From a virus, in UHGV virus genome UHGV-0171440: a stretch of 20,676 nucleotides of DNA; one strand, written 5' to 3'. Position numbers and translations under genes: made by a program. Below are positions 377 through 20,223 of the stretch, in pieces (the stretch's first letter is position 1; each line of letters begins with the position of its first letter). The notes beneath the pieces were generated by a model, which had not been told where the DNA came from, searched no databases, and worked only from the letters and a program-made list of their open reading frames with translations.

Positions 377-1597
377 TCATGTAATGGTTACTGGCACCTC
401 GACAGATATTCCGTGAATCGGCTCGTTAATCAGTATCTTGATGTTTCCTGACACGTTCTCATCGAAAACAACGTCAAAGACAAGATTTTGAAATATTTGG
501 TTCCGTCGAGATACTAGTGCCTGATGAAAGTAGTTCACAGGCAGATGAAGTGTTGCATTGACCTTGGGTTCAAATGAAATTTCTGGCTCCACTACCGATA
601 CGTATCGTGTTGAAACATCCTGTGGTAAGGATGTTGGGGATAGTTCGATGGTCACCGTTTTCCCGTTGACCTTTACACTCTTCTTCGCAAGAACATTCAG
701 CGGTGAATAGGCGTGATACACAGAAAGGAGAAGTCTCGCCCTGCTTGCCTTGTCAACAATGCTAATAGTCGAAAGCGCATCCCCGCCAGAAGAGTAAGAG
801 GAAACAATATCTACAATACCAGAGTCCTGGGTTATCTTTCGGACTGACAACGTACTGAACCTGTCCTCAAAATCAGTTTCCACCACCAGTTCCGAGAACT
901 GAGCATTCAGCAGGGAAAATGGAACGCTGTAGTGGTAGTTTTTTGTTGCCCTGAACGAATACACAGGGGAAACAAATCTCGGAACCGTTGGATACGCTGC
1001 GGCGGGTCTGTCCAGTTTTGTCGGGTAAGCCGGAACCTTGTAGCCAGCCAGCAGAATATATCTCAACTCGTCGTCTTCGTTCGGTGGATCTATCTCAGCC
1101 ACCTCAACGAGGTTGTAATCATGGTCCTGATTGATAATGGCAACAGGATCACCATAGGCATCAAACCCCAGCAGCTTGTGTTTCCGCTGGTCTACATTTG
1201 GTAGTGGTTCGACTGAAGGCTCAGGAACACGCAGGAAGTGCTTTGTCGCTAAAGCCTTCCCCGCCCCGCTGGCAGGCATAATGTTCGGATAATAGTAAAC
1301 CTGCACATTATTCACGTCATAAACAACCATGCTGTAGGCATCGTCAGTGTAGAACTCAACGACAGCACCGTTATACACACAGTAGCCACCAGAATTAATA
1401 GAAAGAGGCTGTGACACAGGAATGAATTCCCCGCTCTCGTTTTCAATGTAAACGTTAATCTGGTTTTTCTTGATGACAGGGTCTTTGTCAGGCTTACCAA
1501 TATAGATTTGACCATTTGCTATTGGTCTCAGACTGTTTGGATAAGTGAATAACTGCGCAGGGATTCTGACGGCAACGTTTGGGTTAATTGTTGTCAT
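377..1597 (-). CDS. Tailspike / receptor-binding protein (406 aa) with a P22 gp9-like N-terminal head-binding domain and a short divergent C-terminal domain
   Basis: N-terminal ~110 aa (ANGQIYIGKPDKDPV...NQINVYIENESGEF...) resembles the P22 gp9 head-binding domain; the rest does not resemble the P22 beta-helix as I recall it. AGAGG Shine-Dalgarno 5 nt before the ATG. Last gene of the late operon. Confidence 0.8.
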   Translation of the reverse strand: MTTINPNVAVRIPAQLFTYPNSLRPIANGQIYIGKPDKDPVIKKNQINVYIENESGEFIPVSQPLSINSGGYCVYNGAVVEFYTDDAYSMVVYDVNNVQVYYYPNIMPASGAGKALATKHFLRVPEPSVEPLPNVDQRKHKLLGFDAYGDPVAIINQDHDYNLVEVAEIDPPNEDDELRYILLAGYKVPAYPTKLDRPAAAYPTVPRFVSPVYSFRATKNYHYSVPFSLLNAQFSELVVETDFEDRFSTLSVRKITQDSGIVDIVSSYSSGGDALSTISIVDKASRARLLLSVYHAYSPLNVLAKKSVKVNGKTVTIELSPTSLPQDVSTRYVSVVEPEISFEPKVNATLHLPVNYFHQALVSRRNQIFQNLVFDVVFDENVSGNIKILINEPIHGISVEVPVTIT

Positions 1598-1626
1598 AAG
1601 GACCTCTTTAAAACTTTTTTGGGATG

Positions 1627-1650
1627 TAAAAAACCCAGCCGAAGCTGGGT
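1627..1650 (-). terminator. Intrinsic terminator (minus strand) between the antirepressor region and the tailspike gene
   Basis: Read on the minus strand: CCCAGC-TTCG-GCTGGG (6-bp stem, UUCG tetraloop) followed directly by TTTTTT; lies right after the stop of the 73-aa ORF. Confidence 0.6.
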
Positions 1651-1657
1651 CGTTGCG

Positions 1658-1879
1658 TTAGTTATCAAAATGTCCGTACGTTTCTTCTTCTTCAGGTGTA
1701 AGGGGGAGAATCTCGACTCTATCTATAGATACCTTTTCAATGTACCCATGAGGTCTACTTAAAATTAAAGCTCTCTCATGCCACAGAACTCCAAGAATGT
1801 GATACCTTCCAGCATCGCCTTTTACCCTGGCTCTTCCTTTGATTCTTGGCGGCATAATGCCATATTTTTTCTTTGCCAT
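1658..1879 (-). CDS. Hypothetical 73-aa protein, translationally coupled to the upstream antirepressor-like gene
   Basis: ORF whose ATG overlaps the upstream stop (TAATG); no recognisable motif; sits between the antirepressor-like gene and the tailspike. Confidence 0.55.
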   Translation of the reverse strand: MAKKKYGIMPPRIKGRARVKGDAGRYHILGVLWHERALILSRPHGYIEKVSIDRVEILPLTPEEEETYGHFDN

Positions 1880-2607
1880 TATGCAACATTACTCCCATGA
1901 ATCAGGTGTTGTAGTGCTTTAACACCTTCCGCATTGTAGCGGAATGCTTCCACCTGTTTGCTGGAATGCGCAGATTTATCCAGGAAGAACTTCCCGTACT
2001 GCTCAGTTTTGAGGTTGTTTGCGTTAGCAATGCGACCAATCTTGTTGGCCGTTACTCCAAGCTGCTCTGCAACCTCCCCTGCTGAGTAGTAGTGTTCTTC
2101 GATTGCTGGTAGAGGAATTGCATTAAAACCGACTATTGGGTTGATTATGCTTGCTGCCGCAGTCTGCTTTGCCTCAGGTGCAAGGTTAGGCATCAAGTCG
2201 AACAGGTTGGTAACTGCTTCAACTGTCATTTTCAGGGTGCGGGCCTGACGGTACTCAACAAGACCAGTTGCTGACTTCCCGTTCTTGATGTGCGCTTCCT
2301 GCATATTTTCAAGTTTATCTACCAGAGAGCGACGTACCGCCTTAGACTCACGAGCGGCCACGCGGAGCGCCTGCTTGATGGACATATCAATGATGACCAT
2401 CGAAGTTTTGTTCGCTTTTTGCACTACACTTTTTGTGTAGTGCTCCCCATCCAGTTCATCTTCAACTTTCTCGATGAATTTGTTATTGCGAACTTCCGGC
2501 TCACCGCACTGTTTGCGTGCTTCATTGACCATCGCCAGCAGAGACTGGCTATCAATAGTTTTATCCGTGACAACGGATCCGATGTTTGCTACATTCTTCA
2601 AAGTCAT
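1879..2607 (-). CDS. Phage antirepressor-family protein (about 242 aa) with a KilAC/ANT-like C-terminal domain
   Basis: Start set at the internal ATG (MTLKNVANIG...) preceded by AAGGAA-n6; C-terminal region (HYYSAGEVAEQLGVTANKIGRIANANNL...) resembles antirepressor C-terminal domains from memory. The domain assignment is not verified. Confidence 0.55.
   Translation of the reverse strand: MTLKNVANIGSVVTDKTIDSQSLLAMVNEARKQCGEPEVRNNKFIEKVEDELDGEHYTKSVVQKANKTSMVIIDMSIKQALRVAARESKAVRRSLVDKLENMQEAHIKNGKSATGLVEYRQARTLKMTVEAVTNLFDLMPNLAPEAKQTAAASIINPIVGFNAIPLPAIEEHYYSAGEVAEQLGVTANKIGRIANANNLKTEQYGKFFLDKSAHSSKQVEAFRYNAEGVKALQHLIHGSNVA
2567..2595 (+). promoter_or_regulatory. Candidate sigma70 promoter on the plus strand, antisense to the 5' end of the 242-aa antirepressor-like gene
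   Basis: -35 GTGACA (2567-2572), 17-bp spacer, extended -10 TGcTACATT (2587-2595). Confidence 0.35.
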
Positions 2608-2676
2608 TAGGCATTCCTTATGTGGTAGTAAGGGTGTGACATAGGCCGCCAGCAGCACACTGGCGGTTTTCTTTTT
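2602..2676 (+). ncRNA. Candidate cis-antisense RNA (about 75 nt) complementary to the start codon and RBS of the 242-aa antirepressor-like gene
   Basis: Bounded by the candidate promoter above and a canonical plus-strand terminator at 2646-2676; it would cover the complement of the ATG (2605-2607) and the AAGGAA Shine-Dalgarno (2613-2618). Confidence 0.3.
2646..2676 (+). terminator. Canonical intrinsic terminator on the plus strand inside a minus-strand operon
   Basis: 7-bp stem CCGCCAG/CTGGCGG with a 7-nt loop, followed by TTTTCTTTTT. No plus-strand protein gene lies upstream of it. Confidence 0.55.
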
Positions 2677-2695
2677 GCGCCGTCCGGCGCACCAA

Positions 2696-3322
2696 TCAAT
2701 GAATCCATTCCTCGCCGCGCAGTTTTGTCAGCATTGGCTGAGCGTTCTTTACGACAAAATTGTTGGTATCAAGATTCTTCATTTCACGAAGAAGTGATTT
2801 CTTGGTTTCTTCTGACATATAGCGAGTCTCATATGCAATATCGTAAATTCTTCCTGAAAGCTCAGAACCAATTTGCTTCATTCCTGGGTAGATGTGTTTG
2901 CACATTTGTTGACTCTTCTCCATCCACAATTGTAAGTAGCAGAGATTAACCAGTTCTTCGTCAGTAAACTGTTTTGCAATCGGTGAGCATTCTGCCTGCC
3001 GATCCAAAATATCCAGCACCCAGCGGCGGAACTCTTTTGCTACAGGAGTGCGAGCAAACATCGCGATTAGGTGGGCACCGCGTAGTGAGAAAACTCGCAC
3101 TTTTTTGCGATAATTTCCTGAGGTACTCACTTCGAGTACCTGAGTCATTCCGGCGCTAAACTCATCGCTATACTTGTTATAAATCATTGTTACTGCACGA
3201 CTATTTGCGTATTTAAGTGCAGATGCAATATTAGATGATGTAAACCAAACACCATGCATATCACGGGTGGGCGCCAACTCAACTCCGTGGAAGTTGTAAT
3301 CTGATTTTGCTACAATGTTCAT
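2696..3322 (-). CDS. Antirepressor (Ant-like) with a Bro-N domain, about 208 aa
   Basis: Start set at the internal ATG (MNIVAKSDYNFHG...) preceded by AAGGAA-n6; N-terminal half resembles the Bro-N antirepressor fold (…VAKEFRRWVLDIL). The longer ORF in the track runs into the arc-like gene in another frame. Confidence 0.75.
   Translation of the reverse strand: MNIVAKSDYNFHGVELAPTRDMHGVWFTSSNIASALKYANSRAVTMIYNKYSDEFSAGMTQVLEVSTSGNYRKKVRVFSLRGAHLIAMFARTPVAKEFRRWVLDILDRQAECSPIAKQFTDEELVNLCYLQLWMEKSQQMCKHIYPGMKQIGSELSGRIYDIAYETRYMSEETKKSLLREMKNLDTNNFVVKNAQPMLTKLRGEEWIH
3308..3316 (+). promoter_or_regulatory. Candidate extended -10 promoter element (TGcTACAAT) for a sar-like antisense RNA
   Basis: TGn plus TACAAT on the plus strand just inside the 5' end of the Bro-N antirepressor gene; no good -35 (TGGAAG, 3/6). 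Confidence 0.35.
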
Positions 3323-3396
3323 GTTAGTTTCCTTGCATACGGTTACTGACATAGAGGCCCGGTTTGTGTTCGCGCACTGCCGGGCTTCGCTATTTT
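3323..3396 (+). ncRNA. Candidate sar-like antisense RNA (about 70 nt) spanning the antirepressor RBS and the arc-ant intercistronic region
   Basis: Position and length mirror the P22 sar RNA as I remember it; it would cover the complement of the antirepressor RBS and end at a plus-strand hairpin (GCCCGG/CCGGGC, 3357-3385) followed by a T-rich tract. Confidence 0.4.
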
Positions 3397-3398
3397 TA
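3356..3398 (+). terminator. Plus-strand terminator-like hairpin in the arc-ant intercistronic region
   Basis: 6-7 bp GC stem with a structured 17-nt loop, then TTCGCTATTTTTAT. The T-run is displaced 8 nt from the stem, so this is a moderate call. Confidence 0.4.
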
Positions 3399-3563
3399 TG
3401 TCCTAGCATTCTTCTCTCCAATCAGTCCGTACACTTTTCTCAATTGATAAATAAGTTCCGTGTTGAACTGTCGACACTCTTTTTCTCCATTTCTTTCAAT
3501 CGCCTTCCTTACATCCTCTGGGAAACGAACCTTGCGTTGATACATGTCTTTTGCTTTTTCCAT
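3396..3563 (-). CDS. arc: Arc-like ribbon-helix-helix repressor, 55 aa (absent from the ORF track, which only lists ORFs of 60 aa or more)
   Basis: Hand translation of the minus strand gives MEKAKDMYQRKVRFPEDVRKAIERNGEKECRQFNTELIYQLRKVYGLIGEKNART; AAGGAG Shine-Dalgarno 5 nt upstream; strand-helix-helix pattern and position upstream of ant match P22 Arc. Confidence 0.65.
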   Translation of the reverse strand: MEKAKDMYQRKVRFPEDVRKAIERNGEKECRQFNTELIYQLRKVYGLIGEKNART

Positions 3564-3580
3564 CTCCACTCCTTAAATAG

Positions 3581-3593
3581 CCCCACTGTGGGG
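3581..3593. promoter_or_regulatory. Palindromic operator candidate 1 (CCCCACTGTGGGG)
   Basis: Perfect 13-bp palindrome, lying between the predicted start site of the arc-ant promoter and the arc Shine-Dalgarno. Confidence 0.5.
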
Positions 3594-3601
3594 CAGTCAA
3601 A

Positions 3602-3630
3602 ATTGTCACACCGTGCGTCATTGAAGTCAA
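3602..3630 (-). promoter_or_regulatory. Candidate promoter for arc-ant (Pant-like)
   Basis: On the minus strand: -35 TTGACT (complement of 3625-3630), 17-bp spacer, -10 GACAAT (complement of 3602-3607). Confidence 0.4.
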
Positions 3631-3649
3631 CCCCACCGTGGGGCATAAT
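3621..3649 (+). promoter_or_regulatory. Candidate promoter for the mnt-like gene (Pmnt-like), overlapping the arc-ant promoter face to face
   Basis: -35 TTGAAG (3621-3626), 17-bp spacer, -10 CATAAT (3644-3649); the two -35 hexamers overlap within the near-palindrome TTGAAGTCAA. Confidence 0.45.
3631..3643. promoter_or_regulatory. Palindromic operator candidate 2 (CCCCACCGTGGGG)
   Basis: Second perfect 13-bp palindrome, 50 bp from the first; fills the spacer of the mnt promoter and abuts the -35 of the arc-ant promoter. Confidence 0.5.
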
Positions 3650-3686
3650 TTACTTATTGTGAATTTTTCCTGTTTGGACTAATGGT

Positions 3687-4061
3687 ATGAGTAGAGAAGA
3701 CCCTCAACTTCGGATTAGGCTTCCTGTTGAATTAAAAAAAATAATTGAAGCGTCATCAAAACAAAATAATCGTTCTATGAATGCTGAGATTGTCACTCTG
3801 CTTGAGTTGGCGATTCGTGTTTGTCGTGATTTTGGGCCGGAGGATGGTCCTATCGTTCAGCAGTTTAAAGAACAACTAGATGCGATAAACAGAAAATATG
3901 ATAAAATCGAGCATGAAAAACTTATACCTCAACTTTTAGAAATCATAGAAAAACAGAAAAAACAAGTAGATAAACTTATTAGCATGGTTGAAAGATCAAT
4001 TCCTCTTTCAGAGGAATATAAGCAGAAATATCTTGGTGATGACAACAAAAAACCCACCTGA
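3687..4061 (+). CDS. mnt: Mnt-like ribbon-helix-helix repressor with a long C-terminal extension (124 aa)
   Basis: N-terminus MSREDPQLRIRLPVELKKIIE...NNRSMNAEIV aligns with P22 Mnt (MARDDPHFNFRMPMEV...NGRSMNSELL) from memory; divergent from arc-ant as in P22 immI; the C-terminal ~80 aa are K/E/Q-rich and probably coiled coil. Confidence 0.8.
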   Translation: MSREDPQLRIRLPVELKKIIEASSKQNNRSMNAEIVTLLELAIRVCRDFGPEDGPIVQQFKEQLDAINRKYDKIEHEKLIPQLLEIIEKQKKQVDKLISMVERSIPLSEEYKQKYLGDDNKKPT

Positions 4062-4079
4062 CGGTGGGTTTCATTTCTT
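4045..4079. terminator. Bidirectional intrinsic terminator between the convergent mnt-like and lipoprotein genes
   Basis: Hairpin AACCCACC-TGAC-GGTGGGTT flanked by an A-run (4047-4052) on one side and TTTCATTTCTT on the other; the mnt stop codon TGA sits in the loop. Confidence 0.6.
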
Positions 4080-4497
4080 AATCTTGCTTCGTGGAAGGTG
4101 TAAGAGATGCGTTTGCCTCTTTTGGCTTCAAGGTATACATCCCACCATTAAATGGATCAACAGCAAGCCAACCAATTAACCCACCAAACACAAGGTTTCC
4201 ACCAATATACCAACCATTAGCATTGGCTTTGATTGGCAGGGTAACTGGTTCGTACCCATCCTTTTCCATAGTGATCTGGTAGCTCTTTTTGCCAAAATAA
4301 CTACCATCTGACTTGGAAAGAGTTACTCCTTGTGGAGTTTTACCTTGCGCAACAATCACACCTGATTCATCTTTTACCTTAAAGCTCGCACCAGAAGGAT
4401 TGCTGTTCACTTGCACAAGTTGCGTTTCATCACCAACAATAGTTGCGCACCCAGATAACATGATAGCGCCAGCAACGACGCTAATAATCCTCTTCAT
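4078..4497 (-). CDS. Lipoprotein with a PEGA-like domain, about 139 aa
   Basis: Start set at MKRIISVVAGAIMLSGC (signal peptide with lipobox LSGC); mature region has PEGA-like motifs (SNPSGASFKV, GKTP, KDGYEPV) and a Gly/Trp-rich hydrophobic stretch (GWYIGGNLVFGGLIGWLAV). Domain call is from memory of the family pattern. Confidence 0.7.
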   Translation of the reverse strand: MKRIISVVAGAIMLSGCATIVGDETQLVQVNSNPSGASFKVKDESGVIVAQGKTPQGVTLSKSDGSYFGKKSYQITMEKDGYEPVTLPIKANANGWYIGGNLVFGGLIGWLAVDPFNGGMYTLKPKEANASLTPSTKQD

Positions 4498-4963
4498 ATC
4501 AATTTCCATTTCGTGAAAACCACAAACATGCTAATAGCAAAACAAAATAATGTGAAGTGCGTACATAAAAAATGTGCGTTTAATAACCACGAGCACGCAG
4601 AGAACTCGAAGAATAATCACACCAACTACACGAAAAGCTAAATACAGACATTAAATATTGTGCAATAGTTATAAATACAACATTTAGTACACACTAAAAT
4701 TATTATACATAAATATATCATTAAAATGATAATCAAGCCGGTTCACACCTCGGCTTTTTAATGTGCGGTTCGCAGAACTCCACAAGGCCACTTTCAAATA
4801 GTGGCGCACTCATTTTTGGCAGTTTTCCCAGATTGAGATTTTTCATCATATCTTGAGATACTAATGGTTTAACCGATAACACTGCACAAAAAGCACAAAC
4901 TTCCCTTTTCTTTTGCCCATAGGATCAGCCCAGTTATGGCTAATTGCTGCAATAGGAGGGCAT

Positions 4964-5860
4964 GTGATTATTGGTAATAGGGTAATGGTTGAGGATAAAG
5001 GTGGACTTACCGCCAAGGACAAAGTGAACGAAAGTTCAAATCATCCTGAATATGAATACAGGATGGTATCTTTATCCATGTCATCAAACAATGCCGCAGC
5101 AATCACCCGTCGCGATATCTCAATCCATATATTTGACGGCGAACCTTTAACCAGAGGGGGGCGCACGCATTATAAGAGCATGTTTGAAAAGGATCTTTCA
5201 GAAAACAGATATATAAAAGCCAATATTAATATGGATTCAGTATCTGATAATATCTTTTGCTTATCCGCAACTGATAGTGGAATGCTTCCAGTCCGACCAT
5301 CTCAGATTATGATATCTATACGTGAAATAAGAGGAGGTAAGTCACCAGAAACATACTGCGGCAAATTTTATTTCAATGATGAAAATGAAGAAAGAGAGTA
5401 CTCTTTTAAGAAGGGAGATAACTCACTTTTCATTTATCTAAATCTTGATTCTTCTATCTTTTCCGACATATTTAACAGCTTAAAAAATGGAGACACGACA
5501 ATTGAATTTGAGATCAACTTTCCTGCTTACGCAGACTGGCTAGATTGGATGGCGGGGGGAGGTTGGCCTACGACATATATCATCAATCCAGCACGTGATG
5601 ATGAAAACTTCATCTCCATAACGAGCATATCGACCTCCCAATCAGCTAATTGGAGAGTTGAAGATGAAGAAACTGAAGTCATTAAAAATGATGACACTTG
5701 CAATTATGAAAATGATATTGAACATAAAGATGTAAATGCATCAATCATTGCCACCAATGAACTTATATCTAACCATTCTATCCACACAAAACGGTTAACA
5801 TCTTACTTAGCAATAATCACATTTTGCTTAATAATATTAACTATTAAGGTTTGTTTCTAA
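4964..5860 (+). CDS. Hypothetical acidic, Ser/Asn-rich protein with a single C-terminal transmembrane anchor; start uncertain (TTG 4913, GTG 4964 after AGGAGG, or ATG 4985)
   Basis: Long ORF opposite to the late operon and convergent with the gp16-like gene; visibly AT-rich relative to the late genes; C-terminus LTSYLAIITFCLIILTIKVCF is a hydrophobic tail anchor; no catalytic motif recognised. Confidence 0.7.
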   Translation: MIIGNRVMVEDKGGLTAKDKVNESSNHPEYEYRMVSLSMSSNNAAAITRRDISIHIFDGEPLTRGGRTHYKSMFEKDLSENRYIKANINMDSVSDNIFCLSATDSGMLPVRPSQIMISIREIRGGKSPETYCGKFYFNDENEEREYSFKKGDNSLFIYLNLDSSIFSDIFNSLKNGDTTIEFEINFPAYADWLDWMAGGGWPTTYIINPARDDENFISITSISTSQSANWRVEDEETEVIKNDDTCNYENDIEHKDVNASIIATNELISNHSIHTKRLTSYLAIITFCLIILTIKVCF

Positions 5861-14518: not shown

Positions 14519-15429
14519 TATCGAATTCCTTTATTCAGTTGCGCCTTGAGCTTGCGATACGTCTCTACATCCCCTTTGTTTGCTGCCGCTTCCATCTGCT
14601 TTTCAATCGCAGAGATATTTGCAGCAACAGCGTGTCCCTGAATGGGTTCATCAGGTAAAGGGGCTTCTGAAACAGGCTTGGCTCGAGGCTTGAGAGTTAA
14701 ACGTTCTGACAGTCGAGTGAGTTCAATCAGCGCGGATTGCCCGTCCATCGCCAGCAACTGGCGTGTTTTCTCAGGATTAGCACCAAGGTGATACATGAGA
14801 GCAGCGGATTTCCCCGGGAAGAGGCGCATGATGTCGGCACCGACTGCTGGCGGCACCAGTTGCATGAATGCATCCTCTTTCTCCTGATAGTCAGGGATAT
14901 TGAGCTTTTCCGCTGCGTCGTAGTGCTTACGGGCTGCCTCGACGTATTGCGCTGATTGCTGGGTGAACTCCTGAGTTTTTCGCCCCTGCTCGGCGACAGC
15001 CTGGCTTCGTGCGTCCATAGCCTTGATCTGCCATTCACTGTTTGCCTGCTGGAAGGCAGCCAGTGCGCGGCTCTGGTCATAGTCGTACTTAGCCAGTGCG
15101 TCTTCGGAAAGATAATCGTTAGGGTCTGGTTGTTTTGGTAACTCAGGGTTCACCCGCAGGTGCTCCGGCAACTCTCCACGCTTAACCGCTTCCATCTGCT
15201 GCTCAAGCTCACGCTGGCGTTTGCGTTCGATGCGGCGACGGGCAAATTCAGCATTAGTTGCCGGGTCTTGTTTTGGTTTCTCATCGTCTTTCAGGACAAT
15301 CTCGAAGCCTTCTTCCTGGCCTGCGTTGTCGTTGGCATTATCGACAACTAAGCCATCAGCAGATGCCGCTGCATGATTGCCGGGCAGGGTTAATTCTTCA
15401 GAAGCCTGAATGTCGGTGGTTTGTTCCAT
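14518..15429 (-). CDS. 8: Scaffolding protein, gp8-like, 303 aa
   Basis: Resembles P22 scaffold throughout; same length; stop overlaps the coat start (TAATG). Confidence 0.95.
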
Positions 15430-19968: not shown

Positions 19969-20223
19969 TTACAGTGGTGAATTAGACGGCAGCGGATTGC
20001 CAGAGCCGTACTGAAGCATGATCACCTCCTGTTTAATGTTGGTTTGGATCTGCGCACACTGACGAATGCCATCAATAAGCTGACAGACCTGAGAAAGGGT
20101 ATCGAAAATCTGACGCGCTTTTTCCAGACTGACACAGCCCACCAACAAAAAAGGCACCAGTATCGCTACCAGTGCCCATTTCGCCGCCCGTGGCGTTCGG
20201 TGTATCCAGTGTCTTCGTTTCAT
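19969..20223 (-). CDS. Lysis-associated small membrane or lipoprotein (84 aa), in the spanin position
   Basis: Immediately downstream of the endolysin; basic N-terminus, hydrophobic segment, possible lipobox LVGC, Pro-rich C-terminus; AGGTGG Shine-Dalgarno. Function inferred from position only. Confidence 0.5.
   Translation of the reverse strand: MKRRHWIHRTPRAAKWALVAILVPFLLVGCVSLEKARQIFDTLSQVCQLIDGIRQCAQIQTNIKQEVIMLQYGSGNPLPSNSPL

Follow-up and report, generated by a model that had tools for sequence, protein, structure and literature searches.

The window analysed here, a stretch of 20,676 nucleotides from a virus (UHGV virus genome UHGV-0171440), very probably carries at 3308-3397 (+) a gene for a cis-encoded antisense RNA that is a homologue of the sar RNA of phage P22 and blocks translation of the antirepressor gene ant; expression and repression are what we infer from P22. 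In the proposed mechanism, an extended -10 promoter within the first ant codons would fire away from ant, transcription would begin at G3323, the base beside the ant AUG, and an intrinsic terminator would end the transcript about 75 nt on, with its U-tract over the arc stop codon. The RNA, perfectly complementary to the arc-ant spacer and predicted to show an anti-Shine-Dalgarno (anti-SD) UCCUU in the loop of its 5' hairpin, would pair with the arc-ant mRNA made from a convergent Pant-like promoter and occlude the ant ribosome-binding site (RBS), and antirepressor synthesis would be held down in this way in addition to the Arc and Mnt protein repressors. The features of the locus are collected in Table 1.

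Table 1. Features of the immI-like region of the window and of the second antirepressor gene (positions refer to the window; strand + is the strand as given)
Feature	Position	Strand	Basis or remark
Second antirepressor-family gene	2607..1879	-	PHROG 1726
Second sar-like candidate	2587..2677	+	Antisense to SD and AUG of second antirepressor gene (2607..1879)
Extended -10 of second candidate, TGcTACATT	2587-2595	+	Codons 5-7 of second antirepressor gene
Candidate second RNA	about 2603-2677	+	Two-hairpin fold, z -2.9
Terminator hairpin of second candidate, then UUUUCUUUUU	2643-2669	+	Scanner: + strand only
ant (antirepressor, 208 aa)	2696..3322	-	Pfam Bro-N + P22_AR_C; PHROG 245 'anti-repressor Ant', 9e-54
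Weak -35 candidate TGGAAG, 17-bp spacer	3288..3293	+	Placed by spacing only; 3/6 matches
Psar-like extended -10, TGCTACAAT (TGc TACAAT)	3308..3316	+	Read directly; within ant codons 3-5
-10 hexamer TACAAT	3311-3316	+	Sequence
ant start codon ATG	3322..3320	-	Target gene of predicted RNA
Predicted sar-like antisense RNA, about 73-75 nt	3323..3397	+	Model R1, fold; ends inferred
Stem-loop 1: 6-bp stem GUUAGU/ACUGAC, 16-nt loop	3323..3350	+	Minimum-free-energy fold; covariation
Anti-SD UCCUU in loop of stem-loop 1	3330-3334	+	Complement of ant SD AAGGA
ant Shine-Dalgarno AAGGA	3334..3330	-	Sequence
Terminator hairpin, 35 nt, interrupted: 10-bp outer stem, internal loop, 4-bp apical stem	3354..3388	+	Fold
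Terminator U-tract UUUUU, overlapping arc stop codon	3393..3397	+	Read directly
arc stop codon	3398..3396	-	ORF end
arc-like ribbon-helix-helix repressor gene, 55 aa	3396..3563	-	Pfam Arc 19.2 bits; PHROG 228 'Arc-like repressor', 1e-5
Pant-like promoter TTGACT-17-GACAAT, TG before -10	3602..3630	-	Consensus scan only; convergent with Psar
Pmnt-like promoter TTGAAG-17-CATAAT	3621..3649	+	Consensus scan only; divergent overlap with Pant-like
mnt-like repressor gene, 124 aa	3687..4061	+	N-terminal Arc/RHH domain, Pfam Arc 30.6 bits

The gene order around the element, as assigned by Pfam and PHROG, is that of the P22 immI region, with a mnt-like gene on the + strand and an arc-like gene and ant on the - strand; the arc-like protein, at 19.2 bits, falls slightly below the Pfam Arc cut-off of 20.4 bits. 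Between arc and mnt, the promoter scan placed the Pant-like and Pmnt-like sites in divergent overlap (3602-3649). Two near-identical 13-bp palindromes, CCCCACTGTGGGG and CCCCACCGTGGGG, are also found there at window positions 3581-3593 and 3631-3643, one directly downstream of the Pant-like -10 and the other spanning the Pant-like -35 and abutting the Pmnt-like -10; the Arc-like and Mnt-like repressors probably use them as operators. Further observations concern the surroundings of the region. Between mnt and a DNA-transfer gene lies a low-GC island (36-39%, vs 45-49% in the flanks) in the position of the P22 sieA-type moron, with an ORF of 315 aa at 4913-5860 (+) for which there was no Pfam, PHROG or PADLOC match. 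The island also holds a 143-aa ORF at 4078-4509 (-) that belongs to PHROG 6823 (unknown function); a PEGA domain and the N-terminal part of Cor each match it weakly. A tailspike-like ORF at 377-1597 (-) is only 406 aa long, with an N-terminal P22-type head-binding domain and an unassigned C-terminal part.

A first-pass annotation of this DNA had claimed an extended -10 element TGcTACAAT opposite the 5' end of ant, a hairpin with a T-rich tail in the arc-ant spacer, and complementarity of the implied transcript to the antirepressor RBS. All three are present: the -10 element at 3308-3316 (+) over ant codons 3-5, the hairpin at 3354-3388 with its U-run at 3393-3397, and the anti-SD UCCUU (3330-3334) facing the ant Shine-Dalgarno AAGGA. 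The predicted start, G3323, lies 7 nt downstream of the -10 and adjoins the ant ATG. By itself the promoter motif is no more than chance would give, TGNTAYAAT being found once in the window with 1.1 occurrences expected, and a consensus promoter/terminator scanner listed neither Psar, the Psar -35 nor the sar terminator in the window, a silence that we attribute to the poor -35 and the interrupted hairpin. The site draws its significance from the features taken together and from what the relatives show, and not from the motif. Among 35 distinct homologous promoters (from the first of the two pattern sets described below, which was not selected on the promoter), the register of the -10 TAnnnT relative to +1 is kept in 34 and TG at -15/-14 is found in 22, a conservation that protein constraint could explain in part because the -10 lies within coding sequence. 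The Ant N-termini that overlap the kept -10 differ from one another (MNIVAKSD, MNSIAILE, MSSVQNNE, MKSIANTQ, MSTITESD and MKIIAKAK).

The 5' end of the predicted RNA was placed from the -10 spacing and the P22 annotation, and the 3' end from the U-tract. In the predicted fold, a 3-nt linker separates stem-loop 1 (3323-3350) from the terminator hairpin (3354-3388), which is followed on the + strand by GCUA and then UUUUU. The 75-nt RNA (3323-3397 +) has a folding energy of -33.2 kcal/mol vs a shuffle mean of -17.8 (z -5.3; 0 of 200 shuffles as good). Its complementarity takes in both the ant Shine-Dalgarno and the entire arc-ant spacer.

The P22 record annotates sar as the complement of 15021..15090, with the ant ATG at 15091, Psar (15097-15125) within ant and the end of arc at 15022. 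As in the window, the start of P22 sar adjoins the ant ATG, its 3' end lies at the arc stop and its promoter lies inside ant, and the two geometries agree to the base at the 5' end and correspond at the 3' end. Both promoters combine an extended -10 with a poor -35 (TGc + TATACT and GTGTTA in P22). Pairwise alignment found the common blocks TTGCTAnAnTnTTCATGTTrGTTT, TTACTGACA and GArGCCC, and both RNAs have the same predicted two-hairpin fold, i.e., a 5' stem-loop with the anti-SD followed by a terminator hairpin. The close parallel to P22 sar that had been drawn in the first-pass annotation therefore stands in geometry, fold, gene order and detectable homology; transcription of the RNA and repression of ant are predicted from that homology. 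The two elements also differ in several respects: the RNA is about 75 nt long in the window and 68-70 nt in P22; the window terminator is a 35-nt interrupted hairpin, whereas that of P22 sar is a continuous 14-bp stem; the anti-SD in the loop is UCCUU in the window and CUCC in P22; the window Ant is a 208-aa Bro-N/P22_AR_C protein, compared with the 300-aa Ant of P22; and the arc and mnt alleles are not those of P22. Judged by strand, promoter site, terminator, fold and immI context, the window element is almost certainly a homologue of P22 sar. Reads of P22 sar have been reported (PMC13397905), and sar has been annotated by similarity in phage epsilon34 (PMC2629481).

The relationship was examined further by homology searches. 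The Rfam family RF00262 (sar) gave no match at its gathering score (43 bits) on the whole window, nor at E<=10 in searches of 701 nt or 89 nt, and it scores P22 sar itself at 97.8 bits. Only 5 of 15 diverse sar-like loci pass RF00262, and at one of these five, in IMGVR_UViG_2839585306_000004 (L058), the copy it matches is not the one through which the locus had been collected; the curated model covers the P22 branch of the sar family only. In nhmmer searches, P22 Psar plus sar found this site alone in the window (E 0.0025), and the 70-nt P22 sar RNA alone gave no hit in the window. We also built a covariance model, R1, from 19 P22-type and intermediate sequences, none of which has a window-type terminator (zero window-type sequences in all). 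With filters off, R1 aligned at its full model length to 3323-3396 (+) with 47.6 bits and E 2.4e-8, and its second-best match in the window reached 10.4 bits. A partial R1 match at 20038-20078 (10 bits, E about 1) was set aside as chance because it covers the stem-loop 1 consensus only, with no terminator. E. coli prophages are homologous over 2600-3400; a match is found in 125 of 5426 complete genomes, the best of them at 98-99%. In E. coli HS (NC_009800, around 327,080-327,160), an 800-bp block that includes the element is 99% identical, and RefSeq annotates no RNA there; together with the RF00262 result, this bears out the earlier statement that the element is invisible to annotation.

Two pattern scans of IMG/VR yielded 132 unique sar-like sequences; the first pattern fixed two blocks common to P22 and the window, and the second fixed the promoter and the terminator base and left stem-loop 1 free. 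When folded independently, 131 of the 132 have nt 1 paired and the same two-hairpin architecture, with the caveat that both collections used patterns from the window/P22 alignment and some blocks are therefore conserved by ascertainment. The 5' stem occurs in compensating versions: GUUAGU/ACUGAC, GUCGA/UCGAU, GUCAAUA/UGUUGAU, GUCGU/ACGAU, GUCUA/UAGAC and GUCGG/CUGAC. Throughout the relatives, the anti-SD UCC/CUCC is kept in the loop.

Most likely the element gives rise to an antisense RNA, either constitutive or modulated by Pant, whose function is to occlude the ant RBS. It is improbable that the RNA is made and acts mainly in another way, through interference between the convergent Psar and Pant or through RNase III cleavage of the sar/ant-mRNA duplex. 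The arrangement would allow both, with the Pant-like promoter about 280 bp off and converging on Psar, and with a 75-bp perfect duplex to be formed by the RNA and its target; the 1987 P22 papers reportedly describe an effect of convergent Pant transcription on Psar activity. However, the anti-SD is displayed in the loop of the family members that were folded, in keeping with capture of the target at the RBS. Summaries in the literature likewise have P22 sar block the translation of ant (PMC12197685, PMC7968456). The RBS block and the interference or RNase III routes are not mutually exclusive, and both of the latter may also play a part.

Covariation in the two hairpins bears on which strand the structure belongs to. 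In a model-based alignment of 73 hits (A5), in which pairing is inflated because the alignment was fitted to the structure of the model, 97.2% of cells are in standard pairs vs 37-50% with the 3' partners slid by 1-3 columns, compensatory changes occur in 14 of 20 pairs (stem-loop 1, 5 of 6; terminator helix, 9 of 14), and 0 of 500 shuffles reach the observed pairing/covariation values. A MAFFT-only alignment of the first set gave 98.9% paired, with 6 compensatory pairs in the terminator. The MAFFT alignment of the mixed set (A3) was dropped for pair counts because the 3' arm of stem-loop 1 was misaligned in the GUC-type sequences. A tally of per-pair counts in the 73-hit alignment assigns 292 of 1403 paired cells, about 21%, to G-U; such pairs become C-A mismatches in the ant-sense strand, and the conserved structure is therefore assigned to the sar-sense RNA. 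It is very unlikely that the conserved hairpins act instead in the arc-ant mRNA on the - strand, e.g., as a processing or attenuation element, with the promoter-like motif on the + strand incidental. The element does sit in the intercistronic spacer of a - strand operon, and the - strand of the 75-nt RNA also forms a complementary structure (-18.3 kcal/mol), but this fold is no better than that of shuffled sequences (z -1.3). The window's own terminator hairpin has four G-U pairs that would be mismatched as C-A on the other strand, only the + strand has the U-tract after the hairpin, and the -10 register is kept across the differing Ant N-termini.

A decayed relic, with a silent promoter and a hairpin kept as a recombination-linked passenger of the ant cassette, is the least probable reading of all: the -35 is weak, expression here is predicted from P22, and homology with relatives ends exactly at the RNA ends, but the -10 TACAAT with its upstream TG is nearer consensus than the functional TATACT of P22, the U-tract is better than that of P22, the best of the 125 matching E. 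coli genomes keep this allele at 98-99% conservation, and the compensatory changes point to continuing selection on the element.

The antisense RNA proposed here can also be set beside other known small RNAs. The sole sub-threshold Rfam match (3320-3391 +, 24.9 bits, E 0.003 on 89 nt) was to SymR (RF01809), an antitoxin RNA of E. coli that is also a two-hairpin RNA of roughly 77 nt. Membership in that family was rejected, the gathering score being 61 bits, helix 1 being mostly mismatched and the context unrelated, and the match is best read as the shared shape of two-hairpin antisense RNAs, not common ancestry. The c4 RNA of P1 and P7 is likewise a small phage RNA that blocks ant synthesis around the RBS with its pairing sequences in loops (PMC12197685); unlike the window RNA, it is encoded upstream in the same transcript and pairs through short complementary patches, and is not a fully complementary cis-antisense RNA. 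Lambda, too, has a short cis-antisense RNA, OOP, which ends at a terminator and tunes a regulator of the choice between lysis and lysogeny, but OOP overlaps the 3' end of cII, whereas the window RNA overlaps an RBS. No sequence relation to the window RNA was seen for either c4 or OOP.

The E. coli prophage homology ends at 3399/3400, that is, at the arc stop codon and the 3' end of sar, and the homology of SPN3UB-type phages ends at 3324, the sar start, and begins again on the other side at 2642, the start of the second terminator. The sar-like RNA of SPN3UB itself differs in its 5' hairpin. Because homology stops at 3399/3400 and at 3324, the RNA is seen to travel with ant, with the mosaic joints at the RNA ends. 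The window-type sar and ant are joined to at least three unrelated Arc sequences, and most distinct copies have next to them an arc-like ORF whose end lies 62-76 nt from the start of the RNA, many of the Arc sequences being unrelated to one another. In five contigs (L023, L031, L038, L057 and L088), a P22-type sar and ant are preceded by unrelated small ORFs and not by an arc-like gene; each of these ORFs ends 62 nt from the sar start, and in the first four contigs the ORFs are rich in cysteine and have CxxC motifs.

A scan of one genome per species gave 25 pattern matches. Those confirmed by R1 are in Enterobacterales and come from Xenorhabdus, Photorhabdus, Pluralibacter, Citrobacter, Pectobacterium, Tatumella, Atlantibacter, Entomohabitans, Scandinavium and Rouxiella; pattern matches in Youngiibacter, a Clostridiaceae MAG and a Chloroflexota MAG went unconfirmed by R1 and were judged to be chance. 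Multiple copies were observed in some genomes. L058 has five R1 hits on one strand at 1012-5758, and Xenorhabdus beddingii (L247) and Xenorhabdus sp. TCT-1 (L249) have three hits each within a few kb, which suggests that antirepressor cassettes are arrayed there in tandem, each with an antisense RNA of its own.

Within the window, the region 2587-2677 (+) is a candidate for a second sar-like antisense RNA, over the start of the second antirepressor gene. In the predicted fold of the RNA, an AUAG linker joins a 5' stem-loop (GUC...GAC) to a canonical terminator. In 9 of 9 diverged homologues, TGCTAnAnnT and the terminator are invariant while the codons differ (NVA vs TLA), and the element stays with the second antirepressor gene while the upstream neighbour changes. 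These nine homologues show conservation without covariation and R1 does not match 2587-2677, and for these two reasons we keep the second element as a candidate.

We tentatively propose, with confidence somewhat short of even, that sar-type RNAs form a modular, Enterobacterales-wide family extending far beyond RF00262, in which each antirepressor cassette has its own antisense RNA, the 5' hairpins have diverged into cassette-specific alleles and the recombination joints lie at the RNA ends. If this modular reading is true, the window holds two paralogous copies, at 3323-3397 and about 2603-2677, and some phages carry arrays of three to five sar-type RNAs.

The type of regulatory switch is already known, and sar is well characterised in P22; the mechanism put forward here is the textbook P22 one, and a single locus teaches little new about regulation. 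What sets the window allele apart is the shape of its terminator, its loop sequence, the Ant family it goes with and its arc/mnt alleles; neither Rfam nor RefSeq annotation picks it up, and with many of its relatives it is invisible to Rfam-based annotation. Enlarging the Rfam seed would therefore annotate a regulatory RNA in many Enterobacterales prophages, the allele being missed in this way and the block occurring in 125 of 5426 complete E. coli genomes. The family is also a clean natural data set, with a promoter in the first codons of differing proteins, both hairpins covarying and joints at the RNA ends, and it could serve to study how antisense modules travel with antirepressor cassettes and whether hairpin alleles give cassette-specific immunity.
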